Translations under genes and position numbers: made by a program
Shown: piece by piece, positions 1,498-42,903 of the stretch
Position numbering within the stretch: the stretch's first letter is position 1
Layout: every line of letters starts with the position of its first letter
From: Candidatus Bipolaricaulota bacterium
Lineage (GTDB): Bacteria > Bipolaricaulota > Bipolaricaulia > UBA7950 > UBA9294
Direction of reading: 5' to 3'
Length of the DNA: 64,000 bases
Assembly: GCA_018817505.1 (NCBI GenBank)
Contig: JAHITR010000083.1
Span: forward strand, 52 to 64,051
Notes under the pieces: generated by a model
The model's input: the letters and a program-made list of their open reading frames with translations, nothing else
Database searches by the model: none
Told to the model about the DNA's origin: nothing

Positions 1498-1989
1498 ATG
1501 AGCGGAATCATTGTCTACAGAAGCAGCTACGGCAGCACGAAGCAGTACGCAGATTGGATCCACGAAGAGACGGGCTTTCCGATGTTCGACAGCCGCGACA
1601 AGGCCATCCCATGGGATGCAGATACGGTTGTCATTGGATGTCCCGTTCTGGCGAACAAGCCGTTTCTCGTGAGCTGGATGCAAAAGAACTGGGACAAGAT
1701 GAGCGGCAAGCGGATTGTGTTGTTCACAACTTCGGGTGCCGATCCAGCCTCTGAGCCAGTCAAGGATTGGATTGATAAGGCGCTGCCTGAGAGCATGAAG
1801 GGCAAGGTGAAAGTCTTCCCCCTCGCCGGGCGGTTCAACTTCGCGGAGCTAAACGGCATGCACAAGCTAATGATGCGAATCGGGGCTGTGGTGCTGCGAA
1901 GCGAAGAGATCAAGAATCAGATCAAGCATCCGGTCGATGGCGTAGCGAGAAAGAGTCTGGCAGAACTGCTCGCGTTCGTGAAGTCGTAG
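1498..1989 (+). CDS. flavodoxin-like fold protein
   Basis: N-terminus MSGIIVYRSSYGSTKQYADWI is typical of flavodoxin domain proteins. AGGGAG SD upstream of ATG 1498. The ORF-caller start is an upstream in-frame Met. Confidence 0.55.
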   Translation: MSGIIVYRSSYGSTKQYADWIHEETGFPMFDSRDKAIPWDADTVVIGCPVLANKPFLVSWMQKNWDKMSGKRIVLFTTSGADPASEPVKDWIDKALPESMKGKVKVFPLAGRFNFAELNGMHKLMMRIGAVVLRSEEIKNQIKHPVDGVARKSLAELLAFVKS

Positions 1990-2077
1990 CGCAGAGCAAC
2001 TCAGCCGCGACAGACGATCAGAGGGAACGACTCGAACCCCGCTATCTCATCTCTGATTGCGGGGCACGCATCGTCTG

Positions 2078-2680
2078 CTACGACGTCAGCTTCTGCCCCA
2101 GTTTGTGAGCCTGCTCAAGATATCGATCAATGCCCACTTTCTCGACACCGCCGGCATACAGTGTGCCAATGAGCTTGGCGTTGAGTGAGTCGCCAATGGT
2201 GGACTTGATAAGGCTAGTGGCGTCGTCACAGAACACACGCAGAGCCGGTACGATGATGCCGCTGCTGAGGATGGCAATCGCCTGCCTCTTCACGGGGCTC
2301 CGAGGCTCTGGACATCCCTTCACGGGCCAACGACCTGCCTTGGCCATGGTCCAGCAAATGCGCTCCAAGAAGGTCTTGGTCACGGCATTGACGGTTCCCT
2401 CGAAGATGGGCACACCGAAGACGTAAGCATCCGCATCAGCCATCGTCGGGAGAATCTCCTGCATATCATCTTGGATAGCACAGTGGGCGATAGGCTTGAC
2501 TGGATCGTCCTTTCGGCAGACGCCACAGTTGCGGCAATACTGAATATCGCGATCGACGAGTGTGATTTTCTCAATCTGGGCATTGGGGGCCACGCTCTTG
2601 ACGCCTTCGATCGCACGATCGACGAGTGTGTCGATCGTGCGTGCTTTGCGATAGCTGCCCATGATTGCGACGATCTTCAC
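2078..2680 (-). CDS. isf: iron-sulfur flavoprotein / NADPH-dependent FMN reductase family
   Basis: Flavodoxin-like N-terminus MKIVAIMGSYRK plus compact Cys cluster YCRNCGVCR, characteristic of Isf-type FMN reductases. Confidence 0.6.
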   Translation of the reverse strand: MKIVAIMGSYRKARTIDTLVDRAIEGVKSVAPNAQIEKITLVDRDIQYCRNCGVCRKDDPVKPIAHCAIQDDMQEILPTMADADAYVFGVPIFEGTVNAVTKTFLERICWTMAKAGRWPVKGCPEPRSPVKRQAIAILSSGIIVPALRVFCDDATSLIKSTIGDSLNAKLIGTLYAGGVEKVGIDRYLEQAHKLGQKLTS

Positions 2681-3519
2681 GTTGCCTCCTGGTGCTCGCC
2701 CGTGAGCCGGGATCGCGTTAAACGCTTGGCCCCAAATACCAGAATGACACTGATGGATGCCAACGCAAGTGTCCCTACGGTGAGTAGGTCGCCCCTCATC
2801 TCGGCTGCCGCGTTGGCATTGGGCAGCGCAAAGATGATGAATCCGCCGGTGATACTGACATGGGTCAACACCATCATCAGCATGCTGTGCTTGGCGCTGT
2901 TATGGATCCACACCATAGGGATCGTTTGCACGATGGGAAGTAGCGCTAACACGAGCAAGATGGGCACTGCATCCCATCCATACTTGGATAAGCCCATATA
3001 GTTAATGGGCGCATGCCAGAGCGCCCACACCACGCCGAGCAGGATGGCAGAGCTCAGCGCGTTGTGCTTCCTGAGCAGCTTGGGAAGCATGAATCCTCGC
3101 CAGCCGAACTCTTCCATCACTCCTGCCAAGAGCGCGATCGGAAGGGCGAAGGCAAGCTGCCCCAGGATGTCGAGTTGTGAGAGATCCGCACCGAACAGGC
3201 CACGAACGAGGACGCTCACACCGATGATCGCAGGGATGAAGAACAGCGAGACAAGATACCAGATTGGATTCACTCGCCATCGCACAGCTCGAGAAAGCAG
3301 CTCTCGTACGCCTGCCTTGCCATCGACAAAGCGCGTAAAGATGAATCCGAACACACTCGGACTGGCCACGAAGAACACGAGCGCCACATGCACGAACTGG
3401 GGTCCCGCAATCGGATCGACAGGGACAATGGCGATGATCACCGTCATGAGAACCCAGGTCCAAAGGACAATAAAGATTGCGAAACTCAATCCAGGACGCT
3501 TCCTGATCAACGCTTTCAT
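2677..3519 (-). CDS. CPBP family intramembrane metalloprotease (CAAX protease/Abi-like)
   Basis: Motifs EEFGWRGF and WALWH (CPBP motifs 1 and 2) and multiple TM helices. Start at ATG 3519 with GGGGGAG SD. 4-nt overlap with isf. Confidence 0.7.
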   Translation of the reverse strand: MKALIRKRPGLSFAIFIVLWTWVLMTVIIAIVPVDPIAGPQFVHVALVFFVASPSVFGFIFTRFVDGKAGVRELLSRAVRWRVNPIWYLVSLFFIPAIIGVSVLVRGLFGADLSQLDILGQLAFALPIALLAGVMEEFGWRGFMLPKLLRKHNALSSAILLGVVWALWHAPINYMGLSKYGWDAVPILLVLALLPIVQTIPMVWIHNSAKHSMLMMVLTHVSITGGFIIFALPNANAAAEMRGDLLTVGTLALASISVILVFGAKRLTRSRLTGEHQEAT

Positions 3520-3719: not shown

Positions 3720-4784
3720 ATGGCGCGATTCTTTCACAAGAGTTCGGAGAAGGCAGGACAGCTGCCCGGTACGCCCGTCTACGTCGGGAGATCCAAGTCT
3801 GAGGCCGTGGCTATCGAGACATACGAGTTCGATGGCGAGGCCTTGGATTGTGCTGAGGCCGTGTCATTGGACGACGTACAAGCTCCGCAGGATTCCGACA
3901 AGACGTTGTGGGTCAACGTCGATGGCGTTCACGACGTCGATCTCGTGCAAGAGATGGGTACCCGTTTTGGATTGCATCCATTGGCCATAGAAGACATCGC
4001 CCACACAGGACAACGGCCGAAAGTAGAGGATTATGGAAGTCATGCGCTTCTCGTACTTCGCATGCTTCGATGGAACGAGTCAGACGACCAGATTGACGAC
4101 GAGCAGGTTAGCCTCGCCATAGGATCTTCGTGGGTCTTGTCGTTTCAGGAGCGCAAAGGCGATGTCTTTGATCCGATTCGTGATCGACTCAAGACGAATC
4201 GAGGACGCATTCGCAAGATGGGCGCAGATTACCTGTTGTATGCACTGGTAGATGCCATTGTCGACCATTACTTCGTGATCCTAGAGACATTGGGAGACCG
4301 GATTGAGGTGCTGGGCGAGCATATGGCAGAGGATCCGAACAAGAAGGACCTGACATCCATTCGCCATCTCAAACGAGAGCTGCTGTTCATGCGAAAGTCG
4401 GTATGGCCACTGCGCGAAGTGCTCAGTTCGTTGCAGCGGGATGGCGCAGTTTCGATTCACGAGGAGACGGCTCCCTATTTTCGCGACGTCTATGATCACA
4501 CCATTCAAATCATCGACACCGTAGAGACGTTCCGCGATATGGTTTCGGGGCTGATGGACCTCTATCTCTCCAGCATCAGCAATCGAATGAACGAAGTCAT
4601 GAAGGTGCTGACGATCATCGCCACCATCTTCATCCCGCTGTCGTTCGTGGCCGGACTCTATGGCATGAATTTTGACTGGATGCCCGAGCTGCACTGGCGT
4701 TACGGGTACTTCTGGGCGCTGGGGCTGATGACGTCGATCGGTGGCGGGATGCTTGTCTATTTCAGACGCCGCCATTGGTTTTAA
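3720..4784 (+). CDS. corA: magnesium/cobalt transporter CorA
   Basis: C-terminal two TM helices with YGMNFD (GMN motif). About 350 aa. Confidence 0.85.
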   Translation: MARFFHKSSEKAGQLPGTPVYVGRSKSEAVAIETYEFDGEALDCAEAVSLDDVQAPQDSDKTLWVNVDGVHDVDLVQEMGTRFGLHPLAIEDIAHTGQRPKVEDYGSHALLVLRMLRWNESDDQIDDEQVSLAIGSSWVLSFQERKGDVFDPIRDRLKTNRGRIRKMGADYLLYALVDAIVDHYFVILETLGDRIEVLGEHMAEDPNKKDLTSIRHLKRELLFMRKSVWPLREVLSSLQRDGAVSIHEETAPYFRDVYDHTIQIIDTVETFRDMVSGLMDLYLSSISNRMNEVMKVLTIIATIFIPLSFVAGLYGMNFDWMPELHWRYGYFWALGLMTSIGGGMLVYFRRRHWF

Positions 4785-4853
4785 ATGCGCGCGAGGGCTG
4801 GTGTTTTCAGTCAACCATGAAGCATTCTCACTCTCGTGCCCTGCCAGTCCCTG

Positions 4854-5507
4854 TCACTCCCACTCCACTTCAGTGACACCTTCGAGGTTGGAGAGGCTAT
4901 CGACTACGCTCATCGCATCAATGGCAACTCGCGTTCGTAGGCGAAAGGTGACTCGAGTCGTGCGATCCTCACTCCTGGTCATGAGCGAATGTCCGACCAC
5001 GCGAAAGCCTGCATTCGATAGGACCTCGTGACTCCTCTTCTCCGATACGGCCGTGCTGTTACCTTGTGTCCATACCACAGCCGTGTAGTAGCTCACACTC
5101 GGCAATTTCCGCACAACTCTCGCAAGCAGCGTCAACACAGCGACTGACAGTCCAGAGCTAGCGGCCGCAAGCACAAACAGGCCCTGCCCGACAAGAATTC
5201 CAATCGTCGCGGCAAACCAAATGCAAGCAGCCGTCGTGAGGCCGCGCACGACGTCATGAGATTTGACGATGACCCCCGCCCCCAGGAAGCCCACTCCGGT
5301 CACAATTCCGGCAACGGCCCGCCCGGGATCAACACTTCCGGTAAACGATTCGCCGACCATCATGACCAACGTGGCTCCCATGCACACGAGGATATGCGTC
5401 CTGAGACCTGCAGGACGTCCATGCATCTGTCTTTCCAAGCCGATCAGTCCGCCCAACAGGATCGACACAAGCAGCTTCCCAAGAGAAGCAAATTCCAATT
5501 CAAACAC
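4854..5507 (-). CDS. mgtC: MgtC/SapB family membrane protein
   Basis: LEFASLGKLLVSILLGGLIGLERQ N-terminal signature. GTG start at 5507 preceded by AAGGAGG with a 6-nt spacer. The ORF-caller's upstream ATG extension is unsupported. Confidence 0.8.
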   Translation of the reverse strand: MFELEFASLGKLLVSILLGGLIGLERQMHGRPAGLRTHILVCMGATLVMMVGESFTGSVDPGRAVAGIVTGVGFLGAGVIVKSHDVVRGLTTAACIWFAATIGILVGQGLFVLAAASSGLSVAVLTLLARVVRKLPSVSYYTAVVWTQGNSTAVSEKRSHEVLSNAGFRVVGHSLMTRSEDRTTRVTFRLRTRVAIDAMSVVDSLSNLEGVTEVEWE

Positions 5508-5559
5508 GAGGTTCCTCCTTAGCCACAGCACGTGTTGCCAAACGAAAACGTAGCCAACC

Positions 5560-6870
5560 CTACTGCCCTTCGCCTGGGATGATTGCGGCTGGCAATTCGC
5601 AATCATTCGTTGTCCGAAGCGTGGCAATGCCGATCGCTGCGGCTACAAGAAAGACGACAGATACGAGTAGTGAAACGTGATAGCCGACCCCCCGGGAGAG
5701 CGCCCCGGCGCAGATTCCGGCAGCGGATGTACTGATACCCGCGACAGCAGTATAGCTTCCCAATGCCAATCCGCGGTTTTCAGGCTTCGCAAATCGAGCC
5801 GCCAACGCAACGCCGCTCAATTGAAAAACGGCCCACGTGGCTCCGACAAGCATCATAAATGGAAGCACAGCCCACCAGGCAATGTGAACACCCGACCCTA
5901 GAGCGACAGCAGCGCCAATGAACAGGGATGACCGAATCAGCAGCGCCCCAACGTGCGCTCGCTCCCCGCCACGGCTTCTCACTCGCTGGATTGCGAACGG
6001 ATACGTGATCACGATGCCTCCGTGAAGAGCCACATAGCAGAAAAAAACCAGGGAGGCAGAGAACTCAAGCTGTTGCGATAGAACGAAAGGCAGGGGGACA
6101 GCAAAGAACGCGATTCCAGTGAACGCGAAGAACGTGCTCAGCAAGAACACGCGAACTCGTCTGCTAAGGGATTTCAGACGGCTTGGAGAAAGCCGGTGGT
6201 ACAAGTGAAGCGGACTGAACTTCCACGCTTCGGGAAGCAGATTCCCTTCAGCAATGGCAATTCCACGGAAACGCCGTCGAGTGAACGTTGCCGCGACGGG
6301 AGTGATCGTTGCCGCGGCAATTCCAGAAGCTACAAACGCAATCAAGGCGAGCAAGCCGAGCAACAGGCTGATTCCCGTTGGAATTGAGGTTCGTGCAAGA
6401 GTCCATCCGATAATCGTGCCCCCGAGAATCAAGCCTGACAGCCATCCAAATGCCCCGGACTGATTCAGCGAACCAATGCGCGACTCCCACAGAGTTTCAT
6501 CTGCCCCCTCAATGACAAGCAATACGGCCACAGAAGCATTGGCAACCCAGAAAAAGCTCAGTGCCGCGTTGTAGACCAGCAGGCCCGCAAAGGACCGCGT
6601 CAACGCGAGTCCAACATGAGCGAACCCAACCATCACATAACTCGCGATCACGAAGATCTTCCGCCGATGGGCAGCGTCAGAAAGACGTCCCCAGATGAGA
6701 CTGCCAACCACTGCAGCCAAACTTCCCAGTGTGGCGGCCAGGCCAAGCTGCTGCGCATCAAGATGAAATCCCAGACTGATCCTCAGTGGAATCAGCACAG
6801 AAGACATCCCCATGACGAGGTTCGCCAGAATCAGCGACACGTACCACCGTTGGAATCCCAGAAGCCGCAT
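5560..6870 (-). CDS. MFS transporter
   Basis: 12 predicted TM helices with MFS-like loop motifs. Upstream of mgtC, likely co-transcribed. Confidence 0.7.
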   Translation of the reverse strand: MRLLGFQRWYVSLILANLVMGMSSVLIPLRISLGFHLDAQQLGLAATLGSLAAVVGSLIWGRLSDAAHRRKIFVIASYVMVGFAHVGLALTRSFAGLLVYNAALSFFWVANASVAVLLVIEGADETLWESRIGSLNQSGAFGWLSGLILGGTIIGWTLARTSIPTGISLLLGLLALIAFVASGIAAATITPVAATFTRRRFRGIAIAEGNLLPEAWKFSPLHLYHRLSPSRLKSLSRRVRVFLLSTFFAFTGIAFFAVPLPFVLSQQLEFSASLVFFCYVALHGGIVITYPFAIQRVRSRGGERAHVGALLIRSSLFIGAAVALGSGVHIAWWAVLPFMMLVGATWAVFQLSGVALAARFAKPENRGLALGSYTAVAGISTSAAGICAGALSRGVGYHVSLLVSVVFLVAAAIGIATLRTTNDCELPAAIIPGEGQ

Positions 6871-34715: not shown

Positions 34716-35342
34716 ATGGTTATTAAGGCACGACTCAAGCTAGTTCTTACTGCCGACAACGTCGTTGTGGCAGAATCGGATGATCCCACGATCTGGCAAG
34801 CTGCATTTCAAGCCATCCAAGGTGCGAATGTCGAACAAGTCCTGGGAGCAAAGCCCTTGAATCAGGGCGAGGATATTGCCTGGATTCCTGAGGAAGAACG
34901 CACGGCGATCTTGGCATTGGCCAGCGATCTTGGCATTGAACCGCAGGCGCTTTTGTCTGCCTGCCATCCGAGAATGATTGCTCCATACATCTTCTTGAAC
35001 AAGCGATACTGGGAGGCGTTCAAGCACCAAACTGCTGAACGTGGCCGGACCGCAGTCAGTAATGCGGTTCTTGCGATCACACTACTGCTCCTGTGGGGCG
35101 AAAAAATCAACCTCGAACGCGTGGCACTCCGTGATGGAATGGCCGTTCTCAAGACGATTTCGGCCCGAGACGAGCATGCAAGCCGCGCCGTAGAAAACTG
35201 TCCATGGCTTCAGAAGACGATGGGAAGAATTGTCCTCAATCCAGAGAAGATTTCTCGTGCGATTACTGTAGCTCAAGCTTTTTGTACGCAGACAGCTCCT
35301 GAGTGGGAGGATGAAGAGCAGGAAGACGCCCCCGATTCCTAG
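34716..35342 (+). CDS. hypothetical protein
   Basis: GGAGG SD and TTGCTT-N16-TATACT promoter in an AT-rich upstream region. No recognisable motifs. Confidence 0.4.
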   Translation: MVIKARLKLVLTADNVVVAESDDPTIWQAAFQAIQGANVEQVLGAKPLNQGEDIAWIPEEERTAILALASDLGIEPQALLSACHPRMIAPYIFLNKRYWEAFKHQTAERGRTAVSNAVLAITLLLLWGEKINLERVALRDGMAVLKTISARDEHASRAVENCPWLQKTMGRIVLNPEKISRAITVAQAFCTQTAPEWEDEEQEDAPDS

Positions 35343-35538: not shown

Positions 35539-37203
35539 TTACTTGCCCGGACACTGAGCGACAACCTCCGGGGAAATCCCCTTGCTACCGTAGGCCTTGT
35601 CAAAGTGAGCTGAGAACTCCTTCGCCAACTTGACTGCCCGCGCATCATAGGCTACGGGATCGTCCCACGACTTGCGCGGATCAAGCAGTTTTGTAGGAAC
35701 GTCAGGACAGGTCTTAGGAATGGATACGTGGAACTGGACATTTTCGTCATACGCCACGTTCTTCAAAGCCCCGGAAAGAGCAGCATGAACCATGGCTCGC
35801 GTCAGATCGATATCGACGCGTCCCGCTTCACCATACGGGCCACCCACCCATCCCGTATTGACGAGATAGACATCTGTGCCATGGGCGGCCAGTTTCTCTC
35901 CCAACATGCGTGCGTAGATGTCCGGATTCCTCGGCATAAACGGCTCTCCGAAGAAGCGTGAGAACGTCGTCTTGGGCTCGACAATACCGGTTTCAGTGCC
36001 CGCCAGCTTGCTCGTATACCCCATAAGGAACCACAGCATCGCTTGTTCCTTGGAGAGGCGGGAAATGGGCGGCAGCACACCATTCGCATCCGCGGTGAGG
36101 AAGAGAATCGTAGATGGATGCTCGCCAACAGAGGAGGGCTTGATATTGGAAAGATAGGCCAACGGATAGGATCCGCGGGAATTCGGAGTCAGCCGATCGT
36201 CCGTCAAATCGAAGGAGCCGTCAGGATAGATCATCGCGTTCTCGACGATCGCGCCATGCTTCTCGAAATCGTCCTCATGCATGATGGCCCGGAAGATCTC
36301 CGGTTCTTTGTTGGCGTCCAGATCAATGAGCTTCGCATAGCATCCGTTCTCGAAGTTGGCGATCCCAGCATTTGACCAACCATGTTCATCGTCGCCAAGC
36401 AGCGCACGTCGCGGGTCGGCTGACAGGGTGGTCTTCCCCGTCCCAGAAAGCCCGAGCAGTAGTGCGATATCTCCATTTGGGCCTTCATTGGCCGAGCAGT
36501 GAAGAGGTAGGATGCCTTCTGCGGGCAGCATGTAATTCATCACCGAGAACATCAGCTTCTTGGCAGAGCCGCAATAGGCCGAGCCATAGACCACGCCAAT
36601 GCGTCGATCCAAATCCATGGCAATGGTCATGGTTGACGTGCCTTTGATGCGTGGATCGATCCTCAGTCGCCCTTGATACCGAGATGGATCAAGCTTGTTA
36701 TAGGGAAGAGCGAGCAATGTGAACGGGCGGTCAAAGAACACGGATCGTTCAATGTCCTCAGGCATGGGGCGGAACATGTTGTCTGCGAACAGGGACGTAA
36801 CCGCGCGGTATGAAATGAATTTGACGGGAAGAGCATACGCTGAATCCGCACCGATGACGCGATCCAATTCATAGACGCGTTTTTTTGCGTTGAGCACGGC
36901 AAGCGCATCCTCCAAGAACATGTCGAAAGTGTCCGGATCTACTGGAATGTTGTTCGGGGAATCCCAATCGATCGTGCTCGCGCTCGCAGGACGCTTGACC
37001 GTTAGCGTATCCTGAGGACTGCGCCCCGTAGATTCCGAGGGAGTCCACGTTGCCAGTGCTCCGCCTGCCGAGACCATCGCTTCGCGTCCCTCAACGGCGT
37101 CTCGAATCAACTGCTCCCGACCGGGGTTCTTTACGATGTTCGCCTGCTCGAGAAGCTTGGCCAGTCTGCTATCGAAATCCATCATCATCTCCCACTCTTG
37201 CAT
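35539..37203 (-). CDS. pckA: phosphoenolpyruvate carboxykinase (ATP)
   Basis: Kinase-1a GLSGTGKTTLS and PEPCK-specific motifs. About 550 aa. Confidence 0.9.
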   Translation of the reverse strand: MQEWEMMMDFDSRLAKLLEQANIVKNPGREQLIRDAVEGREAMVSAGGALATWTPSESTGRSPQDTLTVKRPASASTIDWDSPNNIPVDPDTFDMFLEDALAVLNAKKRVYELDRVIGADSAYALPVKFISYRAVTSLFADNMFRPMPEDIERSVFFDRPFTLLALPYNKLDPSRYQGRLRIDPRIKGTSTMTIAMDLDRRIGVVYGSAYCGSAKKLMFSVMNYMLPAEGILPLHCSANEGPNGDIALLLGLSGTGKTTLSADPRRALLGDDEHGWSNAGIANFENGCYAKLIDLDANKEPEIFRAIMHEDDFEKHGAIVENAMIYPDGSFDLTDDRLTPNSRGSYPLAYLSNIKPSSVGEHPSTILFLTADANGVLPPISRLSKEQAMLWFLMGYTSKLAGTETGIVEPKTTFSRFFGEPFMPRNPDIYARMLGEKLAAHGTDVYLVNTGWVGGPYGEAGRVDIDLTRAMVHAALSGALKNVAYDENVQFHVSIPKTCPDVPTKLLDPRKSWDDPVAYDARAVKLAKEFSAHFDKAYGSKGISPEVVAQCPGK

Positions 37204-37601
37204 GAGGTCCTTTCAAGGACCGCCGAAGTGGCAGGATCATATCAAACAACATCTCGATTCGAAAGGCAGGGGTAGCGAGTGAACCACTGAGATCTAGTTC
37301 CGATAGGATGAAAGACCGTTTCGCTGAAAAATCCGGTGAAGTACTTCTGAATCCTACGAAGGAGGGGGAGACCTCCGATTGAACATGAATCCTTTCATGC
37401 CAACGCAATCGTCCCAGAGGTCTCCCGTCGTTACCCTGCGATACGGCTCCCTCACGGAGTAGGCTTCTTGTTGACCTGCTTGGTCTATTCTACCAAGTAA
37501 GTCTAGCGAATCCAACCATGAACGTAGAATTCCGGAGCATAGATCTTTTCAAGCTTTCAGACTATACTTGGATGTTGATCACCGAAGAAGGATGAGGAAA
37601 C

Positions 37602-38027
37602 ATGAACCCGTTTGGAGACAGAATTCGAGAATTGCGTCAGAGAGCAGGACTGACTCAGTGGGACGTTGCCAATCGCACAGGTGTCTCCAACACCTACATC
37701 TCGGCGCTGGAAAGCGGGCGCAAACCGGCGCCTCCGCATGTGATCGTGACCGCTCTTGCTGCGTGTCTTCAAACCAGTGAAGAGGCTTTGTGGAAGATGG
37801 CCCGAGCTGAGCGTGAGGAACGCCTGAAACGCCGGATCGACGGTGTGCCAACATCCCAACGAACCGCACGCGCCGTCGAGGATGGCATGAAGCCTCCTGT
37901 CGCTGATGCGTCGGAGGATCCCTTGGAAGCAGCCATTCGGACATTGAGAGATACTGCGACAGACGCAAAACAGCGTCACCGATTGGCACGGGCACTTGAA
38001 ACGCTAGCCAAGAGCTTGCTTGGCTAG
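37602..38027 (+). CDS. XRE family HTH transcriptional regulator
   Basis: RIRELRQRAGLTQWDVANRTGVSNTYISALESGRK is a canonical Cro/C1-type HTH. Confidence 0.8.
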   Translation: MNPFGDRIRELRQRAGLTQWDVANRTGVSNTYISALESGRKPAPPHVIVTALAACLQTSEEALWKMARAEREERLKRRIDGVPTSQRTARAVEDGMKPPVADASEDPLEAAIRTLRDTATDAKQRHRLARALETLAKSLLG

Positions 38028-38041
38028 GACGTAGGGGCCAA

Positions 38042-39628
38042 ATGCAACAAGGGAACGAATCTGATGGCGGGCTATCCGTCGCGCGGATCACGATTGAAAC
38101 GGCGGATTGGCAAGATGCCGGAATTGGCATTGTCATTGCGCGCCGTCCGCTCACACTGCTGGTCCCTAGCCACTTGATTGAACTCGTCGAGCAGGAACCA
38201 TCCGCTCGTATTCAAATCAATGGCGTTGTCCACGATCGTCCAAAGATTCTTCCTGTGCCGGCGCTTCAGAGAGACTATCTCTCCGTGCTCCAGTTTTCTG
38301 CAAAACATCGGCACGATCTATCGTCGGCCCAGCTACCCAGGAAAGGCGTACCGCTAGCCACTGGTCAGCCCATTCTTCTTCAGCGACTGGCTCCTGAATC
38401 CAGCACATCGGGCACAGTTGTCGATATTCGCGAGCAGGGAGACGGCAGCTCAATCATCACGGATATTAGGGTTTCTCAAGGCGACAGCGGAAGCCCGTTG
38501 ATGGTTCACGGGCAGTTGGCAGCCGTTTGCCAGGGTATGGTGCAACGCGAGGGCATAGGAAGCGCCGTTGCTGTACCTCTATCCCACGACAGCCTGGCTG
38601 AACTAAGACGACTGAAACGTCGCTATCGGGTCAACGTGATCAGCTCCCTGATTGCCGCCCTGATTGCCCTAACCCTAGCGTTCGGAGGGTTTGCCCTGTA
38701 CTCCGCGACCTTTTTCTCTTTGGCTTCGATCGAGGTCCCCGAAGACGGAAGCATGATCATCGCCAGAAACGCTGACGCGCTTACCCTGAGGCCGACTTGG
38801 AGTCGGTCGTACGGCACGCCGATACGCCGCTTCGAGGCGTTCTCATCACAAGCCGGGGGCGAGCTCGATCGCGTCGCCGTCGGCACGGGATACCAAGACG
38901 GACAAAATGGCGCATTCCATCTACTCGATGGCCACGGAAAGACGCTTTGGTCCTACTCAGTGCCGGACGGCGAATGCATCTACTCGACTGAAACTGAGGT
39001 TTACGATGGCTTTCTTGTTGATGTGATCTACATCAGTGACGTCAATCGCGACGGGGCTCAAGAGCTGTTCGTCGTGTTTGTGCATGACCATCACGAGTCG
39101 TGCAAGCTTGCAGTGTTTGACTTATCAGGGAACTTGCTCGCCGAGTACTGGCATCCAGGGTATATACGATCCCTGACCTGCGGACAGGTTGGAGAGGCCG
39201 AAGAATCCCTCGTGGTTCTTACCGCCAGCAACAACGCCATCAAGACCGAGTGGTGGAATCCGCAGACGGTGTTCGCTTTCCGAGGGCTCGACATCGCCGG
39301 TCAAGGCCCGCCCTACGTCGGCTCGTCTGAGAAGGCAGGAAAGACGTTCGGCCAGGGAACCGAGATTTGGTACTGCGTGATCGTCAACTCTGATCCGGAG
39401 AGGATCCGCGCCAAATGCGCCCAACTCGACATCCGCGATTTCGACGGAGACGGCGTCAACGAGATCCAGGCCGCGCTTACGGATAGCCGTTTCTACTATC
39501 TGGATGACTCAGGGAACCAGATCGGTGTCGCACTCGGCGATCATTACTATCGAGACTTTCCCGGCGTGGATCCTCCGGCGCTAGTCGATATCTGGACCTA
39601 CTACGATCCCCATGCAGTAGGCGATTAG
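38042..39628 (+). CDS. membrane-anchored trypsin-like serine protease with extracytoplasmic FG-GAP-like repeat domain
   Basis: GDSGSP catalytic serine motif in the N-terminal domain, which has no signal peptide and is therefore cytoplasmic. Single TM helix VISSLIAALIALTLAFGGFALY. C-terminal DVNRDGAQE and DFDGDGVNE calcium-binding FG-GAP-like motifs. Confidence 0.6.
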   Translation: MQQGNESDGGLSVARITIETADWQDAGIGIVIARRPLTLLVPSHLIELVEQEPSARIQINGVVHDRPKILPVPALQRDYLSVLQFSAKHRHDLSSAQLPRKGVPLATGQPILLQRLAPESSTSGTVVDIREQGDGSSIITDIRVSQGDSGSPLMVHGQLAAVCQGMVQREGIGSAVAVPLSHDSLAELRRLKRRYRVNVISSLIAALIALTLAFGGFALYSATFFSLASIEVPEDGSMIIARNADALTLRPTWSRSYGTPIRRFEAFSSQAGGELDRVAVGTGYQDGQNGAFHLLDGHGKTLWSYSVPDGECIYSTETEVYDGFLVDVIYISDVNRDGAQELFVVFVHDHHESCKLAVFDLSGNLLAEYWHPGYIRSLTCGQVGEAEESLVVLTASNNAIKTEWWNPQTVFAFRGLDIAGQGPPYVGSSEKAGKTFGQGTEIWYCVIVNSDPERIRAKCAQLDIRDFDGDGVNEIQAALTDSRFYYLDDSGNQIGVALGDHYYRDFPGVDPPALVDIWTYYDPHAVGD

Positions 39629-39653
39629 TCGAACGCGAACGGACGCGATGCCC

Positions 39654-40421
39654 TCACTCGCTCAGTCCAAACACGCGAATGACATTCTCGGTCGTCTGCC
39701 TGGCAATGTCGTTCATCTCAAGCCCTTTCAGATGAGCAATCTCTTCTGCAACGTACTTCACATAGGTCGGTTCATTGCGCCGACCTCTGTAGGGGATCGG
39801 TGTGAGATAGGGACAATCGGTCTCCAATAGAATGCGATCAAGCGGCACGTGCTTGATTGCGTCTCGCAACGCACCGTTCTTGGGGTAGGTCAGCGGGCCA
39901 CCGACCCCCAAATGCAGCCCAAGAGCGAGGAAATCTTCAGCCAATGCCGAATCTCCGAGAAAGGAATGCACCACGCCGCGATGCGCGGCTCCGCGGGTTT
40001 TCAAAATGGCAAGCAAATCGTCGGTGGACTCTCGGTTGTGCAGACAAATGGGAAGCGCAAGTTCCGCAGCCAAATCCAATTGCTGCGCAAACACGTCGCG
40101 CTGTCGATCCCTTGGCGACAAGTCACGATAGTAATCGAGTCCGATTTCGCCAATGCCCACGACCAAATCATCTTGGGCCAACGCTTTGAGTTCGGTCAAA
40201 GCTTCGGCATCGACAGATTTTGCGCCATGAGGATGAACGCCAACGGTTGCCCACATATTCCGATACCGTCTCGCCAGCTGTATGGCCGCAAGGCTAGAGC
40301 GGAGCGAAGATCCAATTGACAGAATTCCCAAACCCTCTTCCGAACAGCGAGCAATCACAGATGCTCGATCCGAGTCGAATGCATGATCATCCAGATGGGC
40401 ATGACTGTCGATCCATTTCAT
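39654..40421 (-). CDS. tatD: TatD family metal-dependent hydrolase
   Basis: MKWIDSHAHLD N-terminal His motif. TIM-barrel metal ligands. Confidence 0.8.
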   Translation of the reverse strand: MKWIDSHAHLDDHAFDSDRASVIARCSEEGLGILSIGSSLRSSLAAIQLARRYRNMWATVGVHPHGAKSVDAEALTELKALAQDDLVVGIGEIGLDYYRDLSPRDRQRDVFAQQLDLAAELALPICLHNRESTDDLLAILKTRGAAHRGVVHSFLGDSALAEDFLALGLHLGVGGPLTYPKNGALRDAIKHVPLDRILLETDCPYLTPIPYRGRRNEPTYVKYVAEEIAHLKGLEMNDIARQTTENVIRVFGLSE

Positions 40422-41965
40422 GACTCCAGCTCCTTCAGAACGCGTGGAAGATCGTTCAGTATATCGGAGGGCATCAGCGATCGTTCAGCATGTCCGATCG
40501 CCCATTGATCGGCAACCAGCCCGTGAATATAGGGAGAGACGATTGCTGCATCATCCAGACAGCTTCCGCCAGCAATCAATCCGGCCATCAACCCTGTCAA
40601 AACGTCTCCCGAACCGCCAGTGGCCAGTCCCGTGTTTCCCGTGGGATTGACGATCATCGAACCACAGGGCAATCCAATCACTGTCGGTCGACCTTTCAGT
40701 ACGAGATGGATCTTGTGCTTGGCGACAAACGCAGCCACCTGATCGAGTCGGCGACTATTCACATCCGTTGCTGCAGATCCGATCAAGGCAGCGAGCTCTC
40801 CCGGATGCGGAGTCAACACACTCCGCCCCGCCACGGTTGCCAGAAGGTCATCATGATCCACAAGGGCATAGAGGGCATCGGCATCAATCACCAACCGTCC
40901 CGTGTAGTTTCGAAAGACGTGTCTCACCATCTCAAGGGTTGCCACATCCCGCCCAAGACCAGGTCCGATCGCGATGACGTCGACCTGTTGAAGTGCGGGC
41001 GCCAGGCAATCAAGTCCCCAGAGACCGCTCCATCGCCCTTCACAATCCGGCAATAGCAGCGTGGTGGCTTCGGGTACGGCCGTCTGGATAACCGACGCAA
41101 TCGTCTCAGGCAAAGCCACTGTTACCCGCCCTGCGCCTGCACGCAAGGCCCCCAAGGCACAAAGGATGGCTGCCCCTGTCATCCCTTGCGATCCAGCAAT
41201 GGCCAACACGTGTCCAAACGTTCCCTTGTGACCTGTTGGCGGGCGCATGGGCAGCATGGAGGCGACCGAGGCTCGTTCCGGCACATAGGCCAGCGGTGTC
41301 ATGTGGGCAAGAACCGTCGACGGGTAATCTACATCGATTCGTTGAACGTCACCGCAGAATGCCGCTGCAGGATAGAGCCAATGGCAGGGCTTGTAGAAGG
41401 CCATCGCCAGGGTGAAATCGGCTCTGATGGCCGTTCCAAGAATCTCCCCTGAATCCGAGCCAATTCCAGAGGGCACGTCGAGACACACTCTCGTCGCAGG
41501 ACTCGCATTGACGATCTCGCAGATCTCGGCATCCTCATCCGTCAACGGCCGAGACAGTCCGCTCCCGAACAGCCCATCGAGCACGCAATCCGATGTGTTG
41601 AGTGCTTCACTGAGCGAAGCGCTATCCAAAGCCCGAATGGTCCCGGGACCTTCAGTCTGCGAGAGTCGTTCCGCCATCTGCTGCGTCAGCGAGGACAGAG
41701 ATTCCGCGCCATGACGGATCAAAACGTGAGCGCTCACGCCAGTCTGGAGAAGATATCTGGCGACCACGAGTGCGTCTCCCCCATTTCCACCAGGGCCAAC
41801 GAGGATGGTGGCGACCCTCGGTCCAAGCCGATCGAGTAGCCACTCCGCGGCATGGGCGCCCGCCGATTCCATCAGCGCTTCTGGCGAGACCCCCGAATGA
41901 ATCGACGCGCTATCCAGAGCCCGTTGCTGAGCAGCCTGAACGATCCATGGCCATGATCGTGTCAT
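40418..41965 (-). CDS. nnr: bifunctional NAD(P)H-hydrate repair enzyme (epimerase/dehydratase)
   Basis: YjeF-N (GPGGNGGDALVVARYL) and carbohydrate-kinase-like C-terminal domains. Start trimmed to avoid the miaA overlap. Confidence 0.75.
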   Translation of the reverse strand: MTRSWPWIVQAAQQRALDSASIHSGVSPEALMESAGAHAAEWLLDRLGPRVATILVGPGGNGGDALVVARYLLQTGVSAHVLIRHGAESLSSLTQQMAERLSQTEGPGTIRALDSASLSEALNTSDCVLDGLFGSGLSRPLTDEDAEICEIVNASPATRVCLDVPSGIGSDSGEILGTAIRADFTLAMAFYKPCHWLYPAAAFCGDVQRIDVDYPSTVLAHMTPLAYVPERASVASMLPMRPPTGHKGTFGHVLAIAGSQGMTGAAILCALGALRAGAGRVTVALPETIASVIQTAVPEATTLLLPDCEGRWSGLWGLDCLAPALQQVDVIAIGPGLGRDVATLEMVRHVFRNYTGRLVIDADALYALVDHDDLLATVAGRSVLTPHPGELAALIGSAATDVNSRRLDQVAAFVAKHKIHLVLKGRPTVIGLPCGSMIVNPTGNTGLATGGSGDVLTGLMAGLIAGGSCLDDAAIVSPYIHGLVADQWAIGHAERSLMPSDILNDLPRVLKELES

Positions 41966-42903
41966 CGAGTCGCCTCTTTTGCCGTTGGGAAGCCATTCGC
42001 CAGAATCTCGTCGACCACATCTTGAGCCGTGCGATTCGTGACATCGATCCAGTGCACATGCTTGTCGCGGCGGAACCACGCCATTTGTCGCCTGACGAGT
42101 TGCCACGTCCGCGCAGCCACAATGGGAACGAACTCATCGCGTGAGATCCTGCCTTCCAGGACATCGAACGCCTCGGGAACACCAATCGTCCGATAGGCCT
42201 GAACTTCCGGCGCAAGCCCCTCCTTGCGCAGCCGCTCGACTTCCTTGATCAACCCGGAATCCAACATCGAGCGAATACGCTGTTCGATGACGAACCGGTG
42301 CTTCTCTCTGTCCATGTATAGCCCGATGACTGAGAAATCTTCAGACAGCGCCTTCGCTTCAATCTGCCATTCGCTCATTGGCTTGCCTGTGGCGTGATAA
42401 ACCTCCAAAGCTCGAGTCATGCGCAGCCGGTCATTGGGGTGAATTCTCTGGGCAGCCTTCGGATCGACTGCTGCCAGTTCGCGAAACAGATCCTGACTTG
42501 GCCGCTGCTTGAGGGTCGCACGAAGGGTCTCGTCGGTGTCAGGGCCTTCAAACAATCCTCGAAGGATCGCGCCCAAGTACAACGTTCCCCCGCCCGCGAT
42601 AATCGGGCATCGATGGCGCACCCTTATCTCAGGGAGCAGTCGTTCGACGTCCATTCGGAAAGTCATCGCATCATACGCGCCGTCAATCGGCACACAATCG
42701 ATCAAATGATGGGGGATACCTTCCTGCTCACGGAGCGTAGGCTTGGCTGTCACAATATCCAAGCCAGCAAAGAACGCTCTCGAATCCGCTGAAATGATTT
42801 CCCCAGTCACGCGATGGGCAAGCTCGACGGAAACCGCCGTTTTCCCAGAGGCCGTCGGCCCCAGAATCACAAGCACCGGCAATCGGGCTTGCTGGGAACC
42901 CAT
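41962..42903 (-). CDS. miaA: tRNA dimethylallyltransferase
   Basis: P-loop ILGPTASGKTAVS plus MiaA family length. Confidence 0.85.
   Translation of the reverse strand: MGSQQARLPVLVILGPTASGKTAVSVELAHRVTGEIISADSRAFFAGLDIVTAKPTLREQEGIPHHLIDCVPIDGAYDAMTFRMDVERLLPEIRVRHRCPIIAGGGTLYLGAILRGLFEGPDTDETLRATLKQRPSQDLFRELAAVDPKAAQRIHPNDRLRMTRALEVYHATGKPMSEWQIEAKALSEDFSVIGLYMDREKHRFVIEQRIRSMLDSGLIKEVERLRKEGLAPEVQAYRTIGVPEAFDVLEGRISRDEFVPIVAARTWQLVRRQMAWFRRDKHVHWIDVTNRTAQDVVDEILANGFPTAKEATR

Follow-up and report, generated by a model that had tools for sequence, protein, structure and literature searches.

A conserved gene pair of Candidatus Bipolaricaulota encoding an XRE-family regulator and a one-pass membrane protein with a predicted cytoplasmic S1-type protease domain

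We analysed a stretch of 64,000 nucleotides (nt) from a Candidatus Bipolaricaulota bacterium (assembly GCA_018817505.1, contig JAHITR010000083.1, positions 52 to 64,051 of the forward strand), here called the window and numbered from its first letter. Two plus-strand genes lie in it between pckA and the tatD-nnr-miaA-rpoD group, which are all on the minus strand. The first encodes a regulator of the XRE family of 141 amino acids (aa). After a spacer of 14 nt (GACGTAGGGGCCAA) the second encodes a 528-aa protein built from an S1 protease domain, one transmembrane (TM) helix and a predicted beta-propeller. Both genes and the gap between them had been called from the letters alone in a first-pass annotation, and all of its coordinates are exact. 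The features of the pair are listed below with the evidence for each; structure models are AlphaFold2 (AF2) predictions, and their confidence is given as the predicted local distance difference test score (pLDDT).

37602..38027, plus strand: gene for the XRE-family regulator, 141 aa (open reading frame, ORF; HTH_31 match; 103 homologues)
37611..37772, plus strand: helix-turn-helix (HTH) DNA-binding domain, aa 4-57 (Pfam, AF2, Foldseek)
37779..37862, plus strand: family-specific extension, aa 60-87, a long helix alpha-5 followed by G81-x-P83-T-S85-x-R87 (alignment, AF2)
37863..37919, plus strand: variable, low-confidence linker, aa 88-106 (Pro/Ser/Ala-rich in the alignment; pLDDT <50 at aa 89-104)
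37920..38021, plus strand: conserved C-terminal helical hairpin, aa 107-140 (AF2 helices 107-118 and 122-140)
38028..38041, plus strand: intergenic spacer of 14 nt with a weak ribosome-binding site (RBS; AGGGG), the operon junction (sequence)
38042..39628, plus strand: gene for the one-pass membrane protein, 528 aa (ORF; 51 homologues; AF2)
38075..38584, plus strand: chymotrypsin-fold (HtrA-like) serine protease domain, aa 12-181 (invariant triad, DegQ profile alignment, Foldseek)
38171-38173, 38273-38275 and 38486-38488, plus strand: catalytic codons H44, D78 and S149; the GDSGSP motif is at 38480-38497
38585..38710, plus strand: continuous helix, aa 182-223, with the basic juxtamembrane stretch ELRRLKRRYR and the single TM segment (AF2, hydropathy, charge)
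38630-38707, plus strand: core of the TM helix, aa 197-222 (hydropathy maximum 2.24, the sole TM segment)
38720..39556, plus strand: predicted extracytoplasmic FG-GAP/VCBS-type beta-propeller, aa 227-505 (AF2 all-beta, pLDDT mostly >90)
39038-39064 and 39437-39463, plus strand: DxDxDGxxE loops

The pair is real and not a chance arrangement, because dozens of homologues of both genes keep the same order. The 528-aa protein has 51 homologues at 40-100% identity, namely an identical one, carried as 'hypothetical protein' in a Candidatus Bipolaricaulota metagenome-assembled genome (MAG), and 50 at 40-65%. Every named homologue belongs to Candidatus Bipolaricaulota, and so do all named members among the 103 homologues of the XRE protein, which are all about 140-155 aa long. 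The G+C content at the locus is unremarkable. The traits for which the 528-aa protein had been singled out are also there: it lacks a signal peptide, carries GDSGSP at aa 147-152, has one TM helix, and in its C-terminal domain of ~300 aa holds two DxDxDGxxE loops (DVNRDGAQE, aa 333-341; DFDGDGVNE, aa 466-474).

The identity of the N-terminal domain as a serine protease is backed by a family alignment, a profile search and structure, beyond the score of the single sequence, which for Pfam Trypsin_2 is weak (E=4.8e-4, 21.3 bits, under the 27.6-bit cut-off). H44, D78 and G147-x-S149-G150 (the GxSG oxyanion motif) show no variation across 32 aligned full-length members, and C163-Q164-G165 is a nearly invariant signature of the family. 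Comparison of the whole protein with PDB sequences by phmmer gave no meaningful match, but a profile of the N-terminal domain alone found E. coli DegQ (E=2.7e-5) and aligned H44, D78 and S149 with its catalytic His, Asp and Ser in ..LTNNHVI, ..DIALLQI and GNSGG. The AF2 model of the protein (mean pLDDT 88.3) has a beta-rich N-terminal domain at aa 13-179, for which Foldseek returned HtrA, DegP and DegQ with E of about 3e-8 to 1e-7, V8 protease with a TM-score of 0.62 over 202 columns, and the protease domain of HtrA1 with a TM-score of 0.65. The order of His, Asp and Ser, the GxSG motif and these fold matches place the domain in clan PA as an S1 enzyme of the chymotrypsin fold. The first-pass annotation had made its case depend on a catalytic His and Asp, and both are in place. 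The protease has no matching model in NCBIfam, PADLOC or PHROGs, and a Pfam search of the 528-aa protein at E up to 1 found no PDZ domain.

Hydropathy, charge bias and homology together argue strongly that the protease domain is cytoplasmic and the propeller outside, as the first-pass annotation had predicted. Exactly one TM segment is present in each of the 32 members. In the 528-aa protein its N-terminal flank carries six Lys or Arg residues (K+R) and its C-terminal flank none; over the family, the 15 residues before the segment hold 3-8 K+R (mean about 5.4) and the 15 after it 0-3 (mean about 0.7), with the bias towards the N-side in 32 of 32. The N-terminus is polar (MQQGNESDGG...), and the AF2 model starts its first barrel strand at aa 13. 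Since the ORF opens at the first start codon past an in-frame stop, a longer N-terminus is impossible, and there is no room for a signal peptide. In addition, a propeller of the same kind follows a kinase and TM helix in other proteins; because the kinase must be cytoplasmic, the propeller is placed outside and the protease domain inside. The opposite orientation, in which the cell would export the N-terminal domain to act as an HtrA-like protease of the envelope, with no relation to the XRE gene, takes its appeal from the closest solved folds, DegP, DegQ, DegS and HtrA, all of which are extracytoplasmic. It strikes us as improbable in the extreme in view of the non-extendable start without signal peptide, the positive charge on the N-side of the sole TM helix throughout the family, the homology of the propeller to domains behind signal anchors and kinase-TM segments, and the lack of a PDZ domain. 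A folded N-terminal domain of ~195 aa without a signal sequence is not expected to be exported in bacteria.

In the 528-aa protein itself the Pfam models FG-GAP and Beta-prop_CGLA stay below threshold; 15 of the 51 homologues have precomputed matches, and relatives consisting of the propeller only match FG-GAP_3, Beta-prop_CGLA and FG-GAP, the FG-GAP_3 match being strong in 34 of 53. D333 and E341 of the loops are invariant, and D337, G338, D466 and D470 nearly so, in the 32-member alignment. An exhaustive profile search with the 528-aa family (1516 matches at E up to 1e-3) identified the propeller as a shared module, which stands directly behind signal anchors in many proteins, behind a cytoplasmic Ser/Thr kinase and TM helix in P0135, P0141, P0157 and P0166, and also alongside caspase, CHAT, nSTAND1 or histidine-kinase ATPase domains in further proteins. 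Within the protease family the ectodomain is the most conserved domain (mean pairwise identity 51%, against 44% for the protease), and so it is not under diversifying pressure; its ligand is probably invariant.

The upstream gene encodes a clear XRE-family protein. HTH_31 (E=2.2e-14, 54 bits, cut-off 27) and HTH_3 (E=5e-10, 39.6 bits, cut-off 23) match residues 4-61. The AF2 model (pLDDT 83.8) has HTH helices at 4-15, 19-26, 30-38 and 46-55 with pLDDT >90, and Foldseek matched the HTH to DdrO, SinR, C.AhdI, P22 c2 and the N-terminal domain of CapH, all of which agrees with the five-helix Cro/C1-type HTH of this family. Beyond the HTH, helix alpha-5 spans aa 60-79 and GVPTSQR follows directly. 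The extension reads LW..A..ERE.RL..RI.G.PTS.R and is near-invariant: W64, A67, R71, E72, L75, R78, G81, P83 and S85 do not vary in 48 sequences, nor in 27 partners derived from the loci. In the hairpin L132, L135, L139 and a KQRR motif are conserved, and the C-terminus is amphipathic. On this pattern of conservation, the extension with its GxPTSxR motif is a candidate docking or cleavage element, and the hairpin is probably an oligomerisation element. With an HTH, a flexible linker and a small helical element at its C-terminus, the XRE protein is built like DdrO, CapH, ImmR and BlaI, repressors whose cleavage inactivates them. DdrO and CapH also rank among its closest matches, through the generic HTH only (best PADLOC match CapH, E=6e-11).

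We retrieved 40 related loci, of which 31 were informative in that they include the protease gene's 5' end and extend far enough beyond it upstream. An XRE homologue lies directly upstream on the same strand in 29 of these 31, or in 25 of 26 once redundancy is removed, the single exception being L033/L034, which holds the most divergent member of the family. The spacer is mostly 2-16 nt; it measures 3 nt in L048, and in L041 the two genes overlap by 1 nt. The pckA/pair/tatD context is retained in close relatives, and the pair itself persists in distant loci whose flanks are unrelated. The flanks of non-syntenic loci are heterogeneous (metallo-beta-lactamase (MBL)-fold proteins, leucine-rich repeat (LRR) and LVIVD surface proteins, PmbA/TldD), and a search there for a third conserved partner or target gene found none that is consistently linked. 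Other proteins from the profile search have just the protease-TM module in common with the family, joined to LRR, FG-GAP or beta-helix ectodomains. Six such distant relatives were examined, and all six retain the catalytic triad; the same XRE subfamily lies directly upstream of three, namely P0072, whose C-terminal region is non-homologous, and P0088 and P0093, whose ectodomains are LRR. In the reverse direction, protease-TM genes lie downstream of two of the three most divergent XRE members found on long contigs, in one case as two tandem paralogues. Since the pairing is kept when the ectodomain differs, the XRE gene tracks the protease-TM module and not the ectodomain, although the coupling is not absolute. 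The linkage of XRE and protease genes that the first-pass annotation had supposed is borne out in loci with different flanks and different ectodomains alike.

Several loci depart from the simple pair. Tandem protease-TM-propeller paralogues stand behind a single XRE gene in L021 (420-1961 and 2325-3839), L031 (3782-5341 and 6001-7518) and L050 (4561-6774 and 6789-8363), and also in L022; one tandem paralogue, of 737 aa, has an extra C-terminal extension. In P0094, P0096 and P0117 the protease-TM module is internal, at residues ~275-595 of proteins of 649-1371 aa with N-terminal extensions of 270-390 aa, and no HTH fusion was seen among the Pfam matches. Broken copies occur in L016, where 1962-3515 has an in-frame stop within the protease domain, in L051, where 4507-6112 is split into ORFs of 351 and 175 aa, and in L035, a 1.7-kb contig on which pckA is followed by the C-terminal third only of the protease gene and then tatD, the XRE gene not being present. 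These may be pseudogenes or assembly errors. Among non-syntenic loci, the gene divergent from the XRE gene encodes a large surface-type protein (LRR, or LVIVD beta-propeller with PPC, PKD) in L020 (336-3676, minus strand), L051 (337-3663, minus strand) and L048 (1285-2715, minus strand). Such genes are possible regulon members; the pattern is inconsistent across loci.

Three features were recorded in the DNA upstream of the pair.

37470..37503, no strand assigned: conserved upstream element GTTGACC-N5-GGTCTATTCTACC, with its core GGTCTATTCTACC at 37482-37494 (cross-locus comparison)
37540..37568, plus strand: promoter-like TAGATC-17 nt-TATACT upstream of the XRE gene (read from sequence)
37594-37598, plus strand: RBS GAGGA of the XRE gene (sequence)

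The conserved element overlaps an imperfect inverted repeat (37473-37484 / 37492-37503). Its core matches GGTAGANTCTACC with at most two mismatches in 10 of 25 loci, where shuffles would lead one to expect 0.22, at positions -105 to -142 from the XRE ATG and mostly -105 to -125; in L012 it is a perfect palindrome. The element is a candidate XRE operator and/or divergent promoter, and the enrichment is only suggestive because the loci are related. In the window it is followed 15 nt on by ATCCAAC (37470-37517), and TTGGAT-17 nt-TAGAAT, as read there on the minus strand, would make a plausible promoter in the divergent direction, towards pckA, and might overlap an XRE operator. On the plus strand, TAGACC...TATACT recurs in syntenic loci, which is likewise no more than suggestive. 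A strict scan of 37150-39750 for sigma-70 promoters and terminators returned nothing, the TAGATC/TATACT element included.

Systems in which a sensor protease acts on a repressor have precedents in BlaR1/BlaI and IrrE/DdrO (PMC7593790; PMC12828697). BlaR1/BlaI and MecR1/MecI are like the pair described here in that a membrane protein with an outside sensor and a cytoplasmic protease is encoded beside a small DNA-binding regulator, and BlaR1/MecR1 inactivates its small dimeric repressor by cleavage (PMC7593790). BlaR1 is a zinc metalloprotease with several TM helices, its HExxH domain lying between them, a penicillin-binding sensor and a winged-helix partner (BlaI/MecI), whereas the pair has an S1 serine enzyme, a single TM helix, a putative FG-GAP propeller, an XRE partner and a cleavage step that is presumed. 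Membership of the BlaR1/MecR1 (M56) group was rejected, as Pfam and NCBIfam searches found no Peptidase_M56 and no transpeptidase match. In IrrE(PprI)/DdrO, ImmA/ImmR and CapP/CapH an XRE repressor made of an HTH and a C-terminal oligomerisation part is inactivated by a dedicated neighbouring protease (PMC12828697). The COG2856/M78 proteases of these systems are soluble cytoplasmic zinc metallopeptidases that respond to cues inside the cell, for example DNA damage or single-stranded DNA, in contrast to the membrane-anchored serine enzyme with an outward-facing domain found here. Neither protein of the pair has an M78 match in Pfam or NCBIfam, and PADLOC found no capP, the XRE protein alone matching capH through its HTH. 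The first-pass annotation had called the pair an analogue of BlaR1 and ImmA and not a member of either group, and the lack of M56 and M78 (ImmA/IrrE) domains in Pfam agrees with this. Self-cleavage of the LexA/CI type, which needs a Ser-Lys autoprotease domain (S24) at the C-terminus of the repressor, was also rejected: Pfam gave no S24 match, and the XRE tail consists of a linker and a two-helix hairpin.

The closest relatives of the protease domain by fold and by sequence are the HtrA proteases (DegS, DegP, DegQ; S1C), of which DegS is likewise anchored in the membrane and triggers a transcriptional response through cleavage of a regulator (DegS/RseA) (PMC7593790). HtrA proteases are extracytoplasmic and have at least one C-terminal PDZ domain and an N-terminal anchor or signal peptide, whereas the domain of the 528-aa protein is predicted to be cytoplasmic, is N-terminal, lacks PDZ and carries C163-Q164-G165. 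Canonical HtrA membership was rejected on the missing PDZ domain, the C-terminal part formed by TM helix and propeller, and a predicted position on the other side of the membrane. The plan of cytoplasmic enzyme, TM helix and extracellular propeller is that of the PknD-type one-pass receptor Ser/Thr kinases, which have a kinase as output domain; the four one-pass kinases from the profile search carry a propeller homologous to that of the 528-aa protein. PknD-type kinases are not known to have a dedicated XRE partner.

An S1C-fold domain also occurs in RsgI9 (PDB 7sjy; Foldseek E about 1e-7), a one-pass transmembrane signalling protein. There the S1C-like domain is an extracellular sensor and the cytoplasmic part binds a sigma factor, so that orientation and role are reversed with respect to the 528-aa protein. 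By such a precedent, the protease-fold domain might mainly be a binding scaffold that holds the XRE protein at the membrane in an anti-sigma manner and releases it without cleavage, and non-catalytic trypsin and caspase modules are known in other bacterial systems (PMC7159879). We give this very little weight, because His, Asp, Ser and GxSG are invariant in all members and in the distant relatives, which points to catalysis being under selection.

A 2020 review of regulated proteolysis names only M56 and M78 metalloproteases in the sensor-protease/repressor role, and lists S1 enzymes only as periplasmic DegS and DegP (PMC7593790). In their account of conflict systems, Kaur et al. 2020 cover trypsin and caspase effectors, and the XRE-protease pair is not among them (PMC7159879). 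No description of an S1 sensor protease with an XRE partner was found in Pfam, NCBIfam, PADLOC, PHROGs or the literature searched, which leaves standing the earlier remark that the pairing fits no described family.

We tentatively favour the view, at somewhat less than even confidence, that the two genes form a transmembrane signalling cassette in which the membrane protein is a sensor protease that cleaves its cognate XRE regulator. The outward-facing FG-GAP-type propeller would sense a ligand, and the signal would pass through the continuous juxtamembrane and TM helix to change the state or the oligomerisation of the cytoplasmic S1 protease. The protease would then cut its XRE partner within the motif and linker or close beside them (aa ~80-106), parting the HTH from the hairpin, and the cut would inactivate the regulator and alter transcription of the cassette and of other targets. 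What the analysis itself establishes is the layout of domains, the topology signals, the conservation of the triad, the arrangement as an operon and a pairing that goes with the protease-TM module. We infer cleavage from the gene linkage and from the substrate-like architecture of the XRE protein; that this protein is a repressor oligomerised by its hairpin, that it is cut at the place named, and that it answers to an outside signal and governs a regulon are likewise presumed in this scheme.

Several points weigh against the XRE protein being cleaved. A full triad without an XRE neighbour is found in the most divergent member of the family (L033/L034) and likewise in three of the six distant relatives, P0075, P0076 and P0083; the XRE protein is therefore not the sole possible substrate, or it acts in trans there. 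Downstream of the divergent XRE gene in L052 lies the gene of an unrelated secreted protein. Conservation of the candidate operator is largely limited to related loci, and the topology is a prediction from the three lines of evidence given above. XRE genes, moreover, commonly adjoin genes that they merely regulate. This last point and the proteins with a triad but no XRE neighbour favour the main rival account, in which the XRE protein does no more than regulate the operon locally or autoregulate it, and the membrane-anchored protease answers an outside signal by acting on other substrates, be they membrane-proximal, cytosolic or the protease itself. This account would also accommodate the single XRE gene before two tandem protease paralogues in L021, L031 and L050, and the coupling of the same propeller elsewhere to caspase, CHAT and kinase domains, whose substrates are not transcription factors. 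It does not readily explain the XRE tail, which with its GxPTSxR motif, linker and hairpin is family-specific and strongly conserved and co-occurs with the protease-TM module despite the swap of ectodomain. The XRE and protease families share the same narrow phyletic range, and no third linked conserved gene that could be a substrate was found. We consider the local-regulator account a serious possibility, though on balance rather an unlikely one.

The company kept by the propeller could also point to conflict, defence or a toxin-antitoxin-like module, in which the XRE protein would keep in check, directly or through transcription, a protease effector that harms the cell once the surface sensor registers a phage or a competitor. 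Caspase, CHAT and nSTAND1 domains, typical components of conflict systems (PMC7159879), occur in relatives of the propeller, the XRE protein has CapH as its best PADLOC match, the XRE-first order is like that of antitoxin-toxin pairs, and tandem paralogues and broken copies occur. The CapH match is, however, limited to the generic HTH, and the protease has no PADLOC or PHROG match. Close relatives conserve the pair in the housekeeping context pckA / pair / tatD-nnr-miaA-rpoD, the G+C content does not stand out, and the ectodomain is the most conserved domain rather than a diversifying one. A defence role therefore seems to us quite unlikely.

If the sensor-protease reading is followed further, the family may represent a class of one-pass 'protease-coupled receptors' that has not been described before, a proposal which we put forward a shade more cautiously than the cassette itself. 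Its members would have an outside ligand-binding module (a propeller here, LRR or beta-helix in relatives), one TM helix, a cytoplasmic S1 protease, and as dedicated substrate an XRE repressor with a GxPTSxR-linker-hairpin tail. The class would be a third solution to repressor cleavage alongside M56 and M78, and would be modular in the manner of two-component systems or extracytoplasmic function (ECF) sigma/anti-sigma pairs, with cognate pairs and an expansion of paralogues within Bipolaricaulota.

Some observations concern the neighbourhood of the pair. A 208-aa ORF at 34716-35342 (plus strand) has no Pfam, NCBIfam, PADLOC or PHROG match and is a conserved protein, kept upstream of pckA in L003, L007, L008 and L010 at 77-88% identity. 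The ORF of the nnr-like NAD(P)H-hydrate repair enzyme (40418-42106, minus strand) overlaps the miaA ORF (41962-42903, minus strand) by 145 nt, and the GTG start listed for this 562-aa ORF is probably over-extended. The MAGs that contain L003, L004, L005 and L006 are labelled Candidatus Atribacteria or 'uncultured Thermotogae'. These loci are syntenic with the Bipolaricaulota window, and their proteins are 42-90% identical to those of the window (housekeeping genes 51-90%, for example rpoD 80-90%). The bin labels are probably wrong.

The module formed by the two genes is real, conserved and unannotated. It is best read as a variant of sensor-protease/repressor signalling that uses an S1 protease and has so far been seen only in Bipolaricaulota, and this offers a function for a protein that is conserved in the core genome of an uncultivated phylum and annotated as 'hypothetical protein'. 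Provided that the protease does cut the XRE regulator, a signal from outside would reach a transcription factor directly by a serine-protease route that needs neither phosphorylation nor the metalloprotease solutions of the BlaR1 and IrrE/ImmA types. Two genes and a single TM helix make for a compact unit. It is modular as well, since the ectodomain is swapped for LRR or beta-helix in relatives, and the propeller serves kinases, caspases and CHAT proteases elsewhere. It would help to explain how sensor modules come to be reshuffled, and could serve as a simple part for synthetic signalling. Should the XRE protein prove to be only a local regulator, the 528-aa protein would still represent a new architecture, with a cytoplasmic HtrA-like protease on an extracellular propeller.

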